From Naegleria gruberi (Eukaryota): a stretch of 2,878 nucleotides of DNA. Shown piece by piece: positions 225-2,003 of this stretch. Positions within the stretch are counted from its first letter, which is position 1, and each line of letters opens with the position of its first letter. The notes under the pieces were generated by a model. The model was not told the DNA's origin and did no database searches. It saw only the letters and a program-made list of their open reading frames with translations. Made by a program: the position numbers and the translations under genes. The stretch lies in NCBI GenBank assembly GCA_000004985.1, contig GG739241.1; one strand, written 5' to 3'.

Positions 225-2003
225 TTAAATATAGAATTCATTAAGTGATGTTAATAATTTTGCTTCATCACTAATTCGATTGGCATAAACATCGAGTGAT
301 GTTAATTGTTTCATTTCACTTATGAATTTGGCTCCTGCATCACCAATTTCATTCTTAGAAATATCAAGTGATGTTAATTGTTTCATTTCACTTATGAATT
401 TGGCTCCTTCAACACCTATTTGATTGCCAGAAATATTAAGTGATGTTAATTGTTTCATTTCACTTATTGATTTGACTCCTTCATCATAAATTAGATTGCC
501 AGAAATGTCAAGTGATGTTAATTGTTTCATTTCACTTATGAATTTGGCTCCTTCACCACCAATTACATTCGTAGAAATATCAAGTGATATTAATTGTTCC
601 ATTTCACTTATAGATTTGACTCCTTCATCACCAATTCGATTGTTAGAAATATCAAGTGATGTTAATTGTTTCATTTCACTTATAGATTTGACTCCTTCAT
701 CACCAATTCCATTCTTATAAATAGTAAGTGATGTTAATTGTTTCATTCCACTTATGAATTTGGCTCCTTCACCATCAATTTCATTCTTGGAAATATTAAG
801 TGATGTTAATTGTTTGATCTCACTTATGAATTTGACTCCTTCACCACCAATTCGATTGTTAGAAATAGTAAGTGATGTTAATTGTTTCATTCCACTTATA
901 GATTTGGCTCCTTCATCATAAATTAGATTGTTAGAAATATCAAATGATGTTAATTGTTTCATTTCACTTATAGATTTGACTCCTTCATCACCAATTCGAT
1001 TGTTATAAATATCAAGTGATGTTAATTGTTTCATTTCACTTATCAATTTGGCTCCTTCATCACCAATTAGATTGCCAGAAATATTAAGTGATGTTAATTG
1101 TTTCATTCCACTTATAGATTTGACTCCTTCTACACCAATTAGATTGCCAGAAATATTAAGTGATGTTAATTGTTTCATTTCACTTATTAATTTGGATCCT
1201 TCTACATCAATTTCATTCGTAGAAATATTAAGTGATGTTAATTGTTTCATTTCACTTATTAACTTGGCTCCTTCACCACCAATTCGATTGTAAAATATGT
1301 CAAGTGATGTCAATTGTTTCATTTCACTTATGAATTTGGCTCCTTCACCACCAATTACATTCGTAGAAATATCAAGTGATATTAATTGTTCCATTTCACT
1401 TATAGATTTGACTCCTTCATCACCAATTCGATTGCCAGAAATATCAAGTGATGTTAAATGTTTCATTCCACTTATAGATTTGGCTCCTTCAACACCAATT
1501 ATATTGTTAGAAATATTAAGTGATGTTAATTGTTTCATTTCACTTATTGATTTGGCTCCTTCTATACCAATTCGATTGCCAGAAATATCAACTGATGTCA
1601 ATTGTTTCATTCCACTTATGAATTTGGGTTGTTCAAATGCATCAAGCGTCCAACTAGAAAATTTAACATTAACAATACAATTCATAAATTGACTCTTCCT
1701 GAATAATTCAATTCTCTTCAATGCAAATTTTTTTTTAAATTGAATAACAAGTTTTGAACGTTCCTTGATCACAGAAAGGAATTGTTTTGAAATCAAGGAA
1801 CAATTATTCAAAATAAACCACGAATCATCAATCATGCAAATTATTTCAAAACAAACATCATCCGAAAATATTTCTTGATCGAGTTTCACAATTTTTTTTG
1901 CTTTCTCTTCCAAATTATTATTATTATTATTATTATTAGTGAATATCTCCTCCGAATTAATGAATTGATGATTTTCAAAATCTTGTCTGTTTCGTTTGCT
2001 CAT
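225..2003 (-). CDS. F-box-like / leucine-rich repeat protein: N-terminal ~125-aa domain with poly-Asn tract and F-box-like motif, then ~19.5 tandem 24-aa RI/CC-type LRRs. Complete ORF, ATG at 2001-2003, TAA at 225-227.
   Basis: Seen in sequence: the longest ORF in the window (592 aa), ATG in an A-rich context (aaaaaaATG), TAA stop. The translation shows 19 consecutive 24-aa units fitting LxxLxLxxNxIGxEGAKxISEMKQ, the RI-like/LRR_6-type consensus. Residues ~41-86 (IFSDDVCFEIICMIDDSWFILNNCSLISKQFLSVIKE) align by eye to the F-box consensus LPdEIlleIfsyLdpkdLlrlrlVcKrWrslv. Residues 23-30 are N8. Product assignment is inferred from motif recognition, not from a database search. Confidence 0.85.
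   Translation of the reverse strand: MSKRNRQDFENHQFINSEEIFTNNNNNNNNLEEKAKKIVKLDQEIFSDDVCFEIICMIDDSWFILNNCSLISKQFLSVIKERSKLVIQFKKKFALKRIELFRKSQFMNCIVNVKFSSWTLDAFEQPKFISGMKQLTSVDISGNRIGIEGAKSISEMKQLTSLNISNNIIGVEGAKSISGMKHLTSLDISGNRIGDEGVKSISEMEQLISLDISTNVIGGEGAKFISEMKQLTSLDIFYNRIGGEGAKLISEMKQLTSLNISTNEIDVEGSKLISEMKQLTSLNISGNLIGVEGVKSISGMKQLTSLNISGNLIGDEGAKLISEMKQLTSLDIYNNRIGDEGVKSISEMKQLTSFDISNNLIYDEGAKSISGMKQLTSLTISNNRIGGEGVKFISEIKQLTSLNISKNEIDGEGAKFISGMKQLTSLTIYKNGIGDEGVKSISEMKQLTSLDISNNRIGDEGVKSISEMEQLISLDISTNVIGGEGAKFISEMKQLTSLDISGNLIYDEGVKSISEMKQLTSLNISGNQIGVEGAKFISEMKQLTSLDISKNEIGDAGAKFISEMKQLTSLDVYANRISDEAKLLTSLNEFYI
505..660. repeat. Higher-order near-identical duplicate block, ~2 LRR units, copy 1 (partner at 1297..1452)
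   Basis: Manual alignment of 505-660 with 1297-1452 gives ~155 bp with 3 mismatches (gttaat/gtcaat, gttaga/gccaga). The offset is 792 bp, exactly 11 x 72. Sequence flanking the block diverges at ordinary inter-unit levels. This is also reflected in the identical N-terminal 46 aa of the antisense ORFs 496..720 and 1297..1692. Confidence 0.8.
1297..1452. repeat. Higher-order near-identical duplicate block, copy 2 (partner at 505..660)
   Basis: Same alignment as above. In protein terms LRR units 3-4 (…SGNRIGDEGVKSISEMEQLISLDISTNVIGGEGAKFISEMKQLTSLDI…) are identical to units 14-15, differing only at one G/N position. Confidence 0.8.
1914..1937 (-). repeat. (ATT)8 / (AAT)8 trinucleotide microsatellite encoding N8 (residues 23-30) inside the CDS
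   Basis: 'attattattattattattattatt' read directly. On the coding strand it is eight consecutive AAT codons (TNNNNNNNNL). Confidence 0.9.

Follow-up and report, generated by a model that had tools for sequence, protein, structure and literature searches.

In SCF (Skp1-Cul1-F-box) ubiquitin ligases an adaptor protein binds Skp1 through its F-box, is linked by Skp1 to Cul1-Rbx1, and recruits the substrate for ubiquitination. Adaptors in which the F-box is joined to leucine-rich repeats (LRRs) have the architecture known as FBXL. The present analysis concerns a gene of apparently this design from Naegleria gruberi, located on contig GG739241.1 (assembly GCA_000004985.1) within a stretch of 2,878 bases, hereafter the window, meaning the whole of the DNA analysed. 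The sole long open reading frame (ORF) of the window (225..2003, minus strand) codes for 592 amino acids. The gene is in all likelihood intact, encoding an FBXL-type adaptor composed of a leader, a divergent three-helix F-box (residues ~44-86), a linker and an LRR solenoid of 18 full repeats and one truncated repeat. F-box plus LRR is a textbook architecture, of which the window protein is a previously unlabelled example.

Few eukaryotic components are as conserved as Skp1 (PMC6759080). The F-box itself is described by a few consensus positions, namely Leu or Met at position 8, Pro at position 9, Ile or Val at position 16, Leu or Met at position 20 and Ser or Cys at position 32 (PMC2699434). 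The L/M-P pair contributes to the binding of Skp1/ASK1, and in VirF a triple alanine substitution at the L/M, P and L positions abolishes this binding (PMC4653730). Combinations of an F-box with LRRs of the GALA or GALA-like (GL) type are known from bacteria, plants, animals and protists (PMC2244805). Kajava et al. (2008, PMC2244805) place the GALA-LRR, 24 residues long, in the CC-LRR subfamily and connect it with F-boxes and SCF recruitment. In fact, the GALA proteins contain an F-box, the domain enabling the interaction with SKP1 in SCF ligases (PMC2244805).

Compared with the FBXL receptors Skp2, FBXL2, FBXL17 and TIR1, the F-box of the window protein is distinguished by a sub-threshold Pfam score, by Phe in place of Leu at position 8, Ser in place of Pro at position 9 and Phe in place of Trp in the K-x-W motif, by an insertion of 1-2 residues between helices H1 and H2, and by Cys68 and Gln74, which are invariant in its own family. 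Its repeats are 24 residues long with the motif N-x-I-G-D-E-G-A, whereas those of the FBXL receptors have 26 residues and contain Cys, and no orthology was detectable between the window protein and any named FBXL. The GALA/RipG effectors of Ralstonia solanacearum (F-box plus GALA-LRR) and LegL1 of Legionella (GALA-LRR) share with it the two-domain logic and the LRR subtype. Unlike these proteins, the window gene is eukaryotic and nuclear and does not code for a secreted bacterial effector, its repeats carry a conserved Met at position 16, a feature that leans towards GL-LRRs, and they are far more uniform (85% DNA identity). RI, NLRP3 and NOD2 are alike in having Pfam LRR_6 as the best model and in their Foldseek TM-scores (0.68-0.71). 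Their repeats are 28-29 residues long, without a joined F-box, and they rank below GALA by sequence, none being present among the 60 best Protein Data Bank (PDB) sequence matches shown. Finally, in AnkB/LegU1 of Legionella the F-box is coupled to ankyrin repeats, and a scan of prokaryotic genomes recovered no sequence relative of the window's F-box.

The F-box segment and its family

On sequence and profile evidence, residues 41-86 (LDQEIFSDDVCFEIICMIDDSWFILNNCSLISKQFLSVIKERSKLV) are homologous to bona fide F-box domains, although they are unusually divergent. An earlier, sequence-only reading had proposed an F-box-like motif at 1746-1883, and both these coordinates and the peptide quoted there are exact. 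F-boxes are so short and variable that one sequence alone detects them poorly, and intermediates were therefore sought. An exhaustive phmmer search of 1.84 billion representative proteins with residues 31-127 returned 17 proteins (E from 2.5e-33 to 4.2e-4), while a word-indexed protein search gave one close relative from the single sequence and four from a profile, the nearest being an N. gruberi 'predicted protein' with 82% identity. The two closest relatives, both from N. gruberi NEG-M, are 82% and 77% identical to the window protein in the N-terminal domain. The family alignment (A1) comprises 19 N-terminal segments including that of the window, the relatives being labelled P0001-P0018.

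The consensus of A1, F-x-D-D-x-C-F-E-I-x-S-F-L-D-…-F-I-L-x-N-C-x-L-I-S-K-Q-W-x-N-V-I, is far closer to the canonical F-box than the window copy is. Scanned segment by segment against Pfam, 13 of the 19 members matched F-box (PF00646) and 12 matched F-box-like (PF12937), and no other family recurred. The segment of P0012 exceeds both cut-offs (25.6 against 20.5 bits for PF00646 and 26.9 against 24.3 for PF12937), P0005 passes the F-box-like cut-off (24.7 against 24.3) and P0018 the F-box cut-off (20.6 against 20.5). The remaining segments shown individually score 12.9-23.7 bits in a constant register, from profile positions 3-6 through 33-41, and the family consensus sequence itself passes PF00646 (21.5 against 20.5). 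The link between the window copy and these paralogues was measured with a hidden Markov model (HMM) that drew on the F-box columns alone and on 16 distant paralogues only, leaving aside the window and the two proteins closest to it. Against this model the 46-residue window segment scored 73.6 bits, while no more than 16.7 was reached when its residues were shuffled 5,000 times, so that the F-box hydrophobic spacing noticed in the sequence-only reading is more than chance. Furthermore, hhalign comparison of A1 with eight canonical F-boxes (Skp2, FBXW7, beta-TrCP, Cdc4, TIR1, FBXL2, FBXL5 and cyclin F) gave 93.5% probability and E=2.3e-7 over 35 columns; this result is used as supporting evidence only. 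In this alignment F46 falls on Leu, S47 on Pro, I54 on Ile (the Ile of Skp2), I58 on Leu, S72 on Cys/Ser and F75 on Trp, which reproduces the proposed pairing of SLISKQF with LVCKRW, with Trp replaced by Phe.

None of the relatives P0001-P0018 is named an F-box protein in NCBI or UniRef, where they appear as 'predicted protein', 'LRR_RI domain-containing' or 'leucine rich repeat protein-like'. The environmental member P0006 has an extension of ~250 residues ahead of the F-box and may represent a fused gene model. Literature searches retrieved no paper describing this Naegleria F-box/LRR family, and no protein identical to that of the window is on record. Together with the 82% and 77% identities to the nearest NEG-M relatives, this was taken to point to another strain or species of Naegleria as the source, or to a paralogue lacking annotation.

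Position by position, the window copy keeps part of the consensus and departs from the rest. I54 (position 16) fits Ile/Val, with Ile in 18 of the 19 family members and Val in one, and S72 (position 32) fits Ser/Cys and is invariant (19/19), followed by K73 in 16 of 19. F46 departs from Leu/Met at position 8; this Phe is found in 16 of 19 members, among them those passing the Pfam cut-offs, and is a conservative hydrophobic change. I58 departs, again conservatively, from Leu/Met at position 20 (family: Leu 11, Ile 5; n=19). At position 9, Pro is replaced by S47 (family: Pro 6, Ser 9, other 4; n=19), and F75 occupies the Trp position of K-x-W (Trp 14, Phe 4, Val 1). The window protein, P0001 and P0002 thus form a subgroup lacking both Pro and Trp, with Ser and Phe instead, and the segments of the window and of P0002 have no Pfam match at E<=1. 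Given this Ser and this Phe, the affinity of this copy for Skp1 may be altered. The F-box is nevertheless the best-conserved part of the N-terminal region in this small, Naegleria-restricted family. Identity to the 16 distant paralogues is 52% in the F-box against 21% in the linker, and within the subgroup 37/43 and 38/43 positions are identical in the F-box, compared with 28/39 and 23/39 in the linker, which argues for continued constraint and against decay. C68, S72 and Q74 are invariant across the 19 members. Two of these, C68 and Q74 (1788-1802 and 1780-1782), lie outside the canonical F-box consensus and are family signature residues flanking the S-K-x-W motif.

From a structural perspective, the segment is predicted to adopt an F-box fold packed on the first LRRs, as in TIR1, Skp2 and FBXL17. 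An AlphaFold2 model of residues 36-127, computed with A1, has a mean predicted local distance difference test (pLDDT) score of 76.7 and shows helices H1 (48-57), H2 (61-68) and H3 (73-82), followed by strand-helix units. Modelling of residues 36-300 yielded the same elements with a pLDDT of 90.9 (88-91 in the F-box block) and a predicted TM-score (pTM) of 0.88. The models therefore contain a three-helix fold of ~40-50 residues N-terminal to the substrate-binding domain. In the linker they place strands at 85-89 and 110-115 and a helix at 95-102 (model numbering being offset by +35 to protein residues); the next helix is placed differently by the two, at ~117-123 (short model) and 124-130 (long model), and the linker leads into the solenoid as it does in Skp2 and other FBXL proteins. 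F-box proteins make up the low root-mean-square deviation Foldseek matches of the small model (Skp1-FBG3, for one, aligns at 1.3 A over 34 columns), and two 41-residue chains from Skp1-Skp2 and SCF-Skp2 entries, regarded as F-box fragments because of their length, superpose with deviations of 1.7 A (39 residues) and 2.1 A (40 residues). For the long model, whose matches are dominated by the LRRs, the top query-normalised TM-score (0.73) belongs to FBXL17 solved with SKP1, and FBXL2-SKP1 reaches 0.69. The proposed F-box plus LRR, FBXL-type architecture is thus supported by homology, by the predicted fold and by a real LRR array.

Some results weigh against the presence of an F-box in this copy. 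No F-box model (PF00646, PF12937 or other) matched at E<=10 when the whole protein, residues 1-130 or residues 31-100 were scanned; only LRR families were returned, and the Pfam gathering threshold is not reached. Of the Pfam models that the sequence-only reading named for checking, LRR_6 alone was matched. Taken by itself, the negative Pfam scan would overturn the F-box assignment. Moreover, Foldseek comparison of the small model with the PDB was not significant (all E>1), and the fold evidence partly depends on the sequence evidence, because AlphaFold learns such families. A single-sequence phmmer search of the PDB with the N-terminus gave noise only (ZMYND8, NusG; E ~0.1), and the profile of the family alignment had as its sole PDB match the F-box of FBXO42 (E=0.45), which is suggestive and not significant. 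The sequence-only reading was to be abandoned if an F-box HMM match and a structural match were both lacking: the former is indeed lacking for this copy, whereas structural counterparts were found. F-box membership of the window copy hence rests on transitive homology and on profile-profile comparison. The origin of the low score was approached by in-silico repair. Neither S47P nor F75W on its own produced a Pfam match, and the double repair reached no better than E=0.057 and 0.16. Since the two changes restore matches only weakly and only together, the sub-threshold score reflects an overall drift and not S47 and F75 alone; it extends to IICMI in place of ILSFL and to a two-residue insertion ahead of H2.

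The leucine-rich repeat array

The C-terminal three quarters of the protein consist of a very regular LRR array. LRR_6 matches it in 18 stretches with E=3.9e-86, a strong score owed to the breadth of the LRR_6 model, and Tandem Repeats Finder reports a 72-bp unit in 19 copies (85% matches, no indels) at 263..1627. Starting from M132, 18 complete units follow one another in register, then a truncated 19th. Within the unit, L4, S6, I9, N12, I14, G18, K20, I22 and S23 never vary, and the variation falls mostly at positions 8, 11, 13 and 16 and less at 19 and 21, which include the x's of LxxLxLxxNxI and the loop after it. Variable positions on a fixed scaffold fit the idea, already put forward in the sequence-only reading, of a variable recognition surface.

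That reading had described the array as 'RI/CC-type'. The array is real and the CC class holds; the sharper label, judged by repeat sequence and by the models, is GALA-type CC-LRR. The GALA pattern consists of Asn3, Ile5-Gly6-Asp7, Gly/Ala at 9, Ala at 10 and apolar residues at 13, 19, 22 and 24 (PMC2244805). With N12 taken as position 3, the units of the window protein follow it: N12, I14, G18, I22, L4 and I9 are present in 18/18, L7 in 16/18, G15 in 14/18, A19 in 10/18 (Val in 7) and D16 in 8/18, and the 72-bp period corresponds to the 24-residue GALA repeat length. GALA-LRRs have no conserved Leu or apolar residue at position 16, unlike GL-LRRs (PMC2244805). In the window protein this position is Met in 17/18 units, i.e., a conserved apolar residue but not Leu, which places it between GALA and GL-LRR. 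Searched against PDB sequences, the array best matches 9j7j, 'GALA protein' (the LRR domain of RipG4; phmmer E=1.1e-46, 163 bits), which outranks all plant LRR receptor kinases in the same search. Legionella LegL1, deposited as 'Gala protein type 1, 3 or 4', is matched with E=3.5e-22, and the best Foldseek E-value (5.7e-11) is again that of RipG4.

At the DNA level, units 4 (1323-1394) and 15 (531-602) are 100% identical over their 72 bp, and units 9 and 14 are 98% identical, the array average being ~86%; the near-identical pairs point to recent internal segmental duplication or gene conversion in the array. Mean pairwise identity between the 18 units is lowest at second codon positions (0.807), compared with 0.897 at first and 0.888 at third positions. 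The inter-repeat Nei-Gojobori pN/pS ratio is 1.12 overall, 1.65 at positions 8, 11, 13, 16, 19 and 21 and 0.73 elsewhere, a pattern seldom seen in coding DNA. This ratio was considered as a sign of positive selection and rejected: it is no valid test of selection for paralogous repeats that may have undergone gene conversion and whose variable positions were picked after the fact.

Source of the gene and competing explanations

The window protein probably represents a working, putative SCF substrate receptor, as established SCF knowledge suggests for a protein of this architecture. Its F-box would dock on Skp1, Skp1 would bridge the adaptor to Cul1-Rbx1, and the LRR solenoid would bind a substrate, which would then be ubiquitinated.

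The sequence-only reading had offered Dictyostelium-like amoebae, giant viruses and intracellular bacteria as possible sources. An amoeba is the correct one, belonging to Heterolobosea and not Dictyostelium-like: the gene is a nuclear gene of a Naegleria-like amoeboflagellate and not a giant-virus or bacterial effector. The notion of a gene from a giant virus or an intracellular bacterium (Legionella, chlamydia, Ralstonia-like), coding for an F-box/LRR effector that mimics host SCF adaptors, draws on the AT-rich DNA (26-31% GC in the window) and on the GALA type of the LRRs, known from Ralstonia RipG and Legionella LegL1 (PMC2244805). It is nonetheless exceedingly improbable, since all named family members, among them the two closest relatives, are nuclear proteins of N. 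gruberi, on scaffolds 0.35-1.6 Mb long, the remaining members coming from environmental (ENA) contigs. When the single N-terminal sequence was used for pattern-plus-tblastn searches, neither the IMG/VR viral contigs nor the 185,579 prokaryotic genomes nor the JGI metagenome contigs scanned yielded a relative of the F-box domain. A five-unit LRR query found no viral relative and only four loci in bacterial metagenome-assembled genomes, at 29-37% identity; the two that were inspected encode CC-type or irregular LRR proteins with no obvious F-box. In addition, bacterial promoter-like sites in the window are at chance level (17 found against 19.1 expected), there are no intrinsic terminators in it, and the ~875 bp upstream of the ATG contain no ORF longer than 51 amino acids. 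Rfam and tRNA scans of the window gave nothing above chance.

With an amoebal nuclear gene, the F-box could still be a degenerate one, having kept the descent and the fold and lost Skp1 binding in the subgroup of the window, P0001 and P0002, so that the protein would serve as an LRR scaffold outside SCF complexes or its helices would do no more than cap the solenoid. The Ser and Phe shared by the three proteins at the Pro and Trp positions, the lack of Pfam matches for the window and P0002 segments, the weak effect of the double repair and the requirement for the L/M, P and L positions in the binding of ASK1 by VirF (PMC4653730) all agree with such a loss. It is judged unlikely, because the F-box of the subgroup is better conserved than the linker, the replacements of Leu and Trp by Phe and of Leu by Ile are conservative and hydrophobic, and Pro is present in only six of the 19 members, yet Pro-less members still match the Pfam models. 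That the N-terminal region is an uncharacterised helical domain resembling F-boxes by chance is a reading to which the missing direct Pfam match, the noise in the single-sequence PDB search and the non-significant Foldseek result of the small model would lend themselves; given the homology through the family, it is already strongly disfavoured and barely credible. Hardly more plausible is a recently duplicated, decaying or non-expressed copy without current function in a fast-evolving LRR family. LRR-coding remnants in two frames beyond the stop codon, the truncated last repeat, the inter-repeat pN/pS of ~1 and the lack of an identical protein on record could be read in its favour, but DNA of 29% GC throws up many chance stop codons, so that an open frame of 1,779 nt speaks strongly for maintenance, and the scaffold residues are intact in all 18 repeats.

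Gene layout, flanking DNA and significance

The features of the gene are collected in Table 1, where residue n corresponds to window positions 2003-3n+1 to 2003-3(n-1). The N-terminus MSKRNRQDFENHQF agrees with the annotated starts of P0001 and P0002 of N. gruberi.

Table 1. Features of the window gene, with positions in the 2,878-base stretch.
Feature	Positions	Strand	Description or basis
Complete coding sequence, F-box/LRR protein, 592 aa	225..2003	-	Uninterrupted ORF in ~29% GC DNA; stop codon 225-227, ATG 2001-2003
N-terminal leader, residues 1-40	1884..2003	-	Basic patch MSKRNRQ, poly-Asn run and charged stretch ahead of the F-box
Divergent F-box, residues 41-86 (core F46-R82, ~1758-1868)	1746..1883	-	Sequence, profiles and predicted fold
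Linker, residues 87-131	1611..1745	-	Two irregular strand-helix units joining F-box to LRR solenoid, from models
18 complete 24-residue GALA-type LRR units, residues 132-563, consensus MKQLTSLDISGNRIGDEGAKSISE	315..1610	-	
Truncated 19th LRR unit and C-terminal tail, residues 564-592, MKQLTSLDVYANRISDEAKLLTSLNEFYI	228..314	-	

The leader is conserved in P0001 and P0002 and had no family match in the Pfam scan. Its basic motif MSKRNRQDF (residues 1-9, 1977-2003) is common to both relatives, and the distant paralogue P0018 has the similar MSKRAREDF; the motif could be a nuclear-localisation-like or regulatory patch before the F-box. The poly-Asn run (residues 23-30) is encoded by an (ATT)x8.3 repeat, read on the plus strand at 1914-1938. 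Its length and composition differ in P0001 and P0002, as in a microsatellite-like variable tract within the leader.

Upstream of the gene, at 2058-2109 and 55-106 nt from the ATG, two 16-bp arms (TTTCATCATCACAAGC / GCTTGTGATGATGAAA) form a perfect inverted repeat around a 20-nt spacer. Folded as RNA, it has an energy of -22.8 kcal/mol (z=-5.3), which none of 200 shuffles equals; its 16-mer is expected 0.01 times by chance, and its sole Rfam match is to CopA, at chance level, with 26 bits where the gathering score is 60. The repeat may serve as a promoter or 5'-untranslated region element. At the other end, past the stop codon, positions 1-130 of the minus strand contain LRR-like peptides in two frames, 'GVKYLSEMSSA' and 'LLDIGGSEGAKHVSEMKHLTDLNICFIGNES', the latter frame continuing past the left edge of the window. 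These remnants could stem from decay at the end of the array, from an exon further downstream or from another LRR gene that starts next to this one.

The value of these observations is mainly annotational, in that the Naegleria family can be re-annotated as F-box/GALA-LRR putative SCF receptors, which enlarges the ubiquitin-ligase repertoire of a lineage including the pathogen N. fowleri. The case also illustrates how far an F-box can drift below HMM thresholds, with Pro and Trp lost, and still be recognised through its paralogues and its fold. A eukaryotic family joining an F-box to GALA-type LRRs in a bacterivorous soil and freshwater amoeba bears, moreover, on the origin of GALA/RipG and of the Legionella GALA-LRR effectors, for which plants have been proposed as the donor of the bacterial GALA effectors (PMC2244805). 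Amoebae would become a candidate source alongside plants, because the Naegleria family combines a eukaryotic F-box with a pure GALA-type array. A broader view, speculative and rather doubtful at present, holds that Naegleria-like amoeboflagellates carry a lineage-specific, unannotated family of F-box plus pure GALA-array proteins built to the same design as the RipG/GALA and Legionella effectors, that amoebae may have supplied those effectors, and that the window subgroup has a constrained F-box devoid of Pro and Trp. If this were true, the subgroup could be a natural variant with altered use of Skp1, and if the bacterial GALA proteins adjoined the Naegleria family in a phylogeny, soil amoebae would be a likelier source of these effectors than plants.

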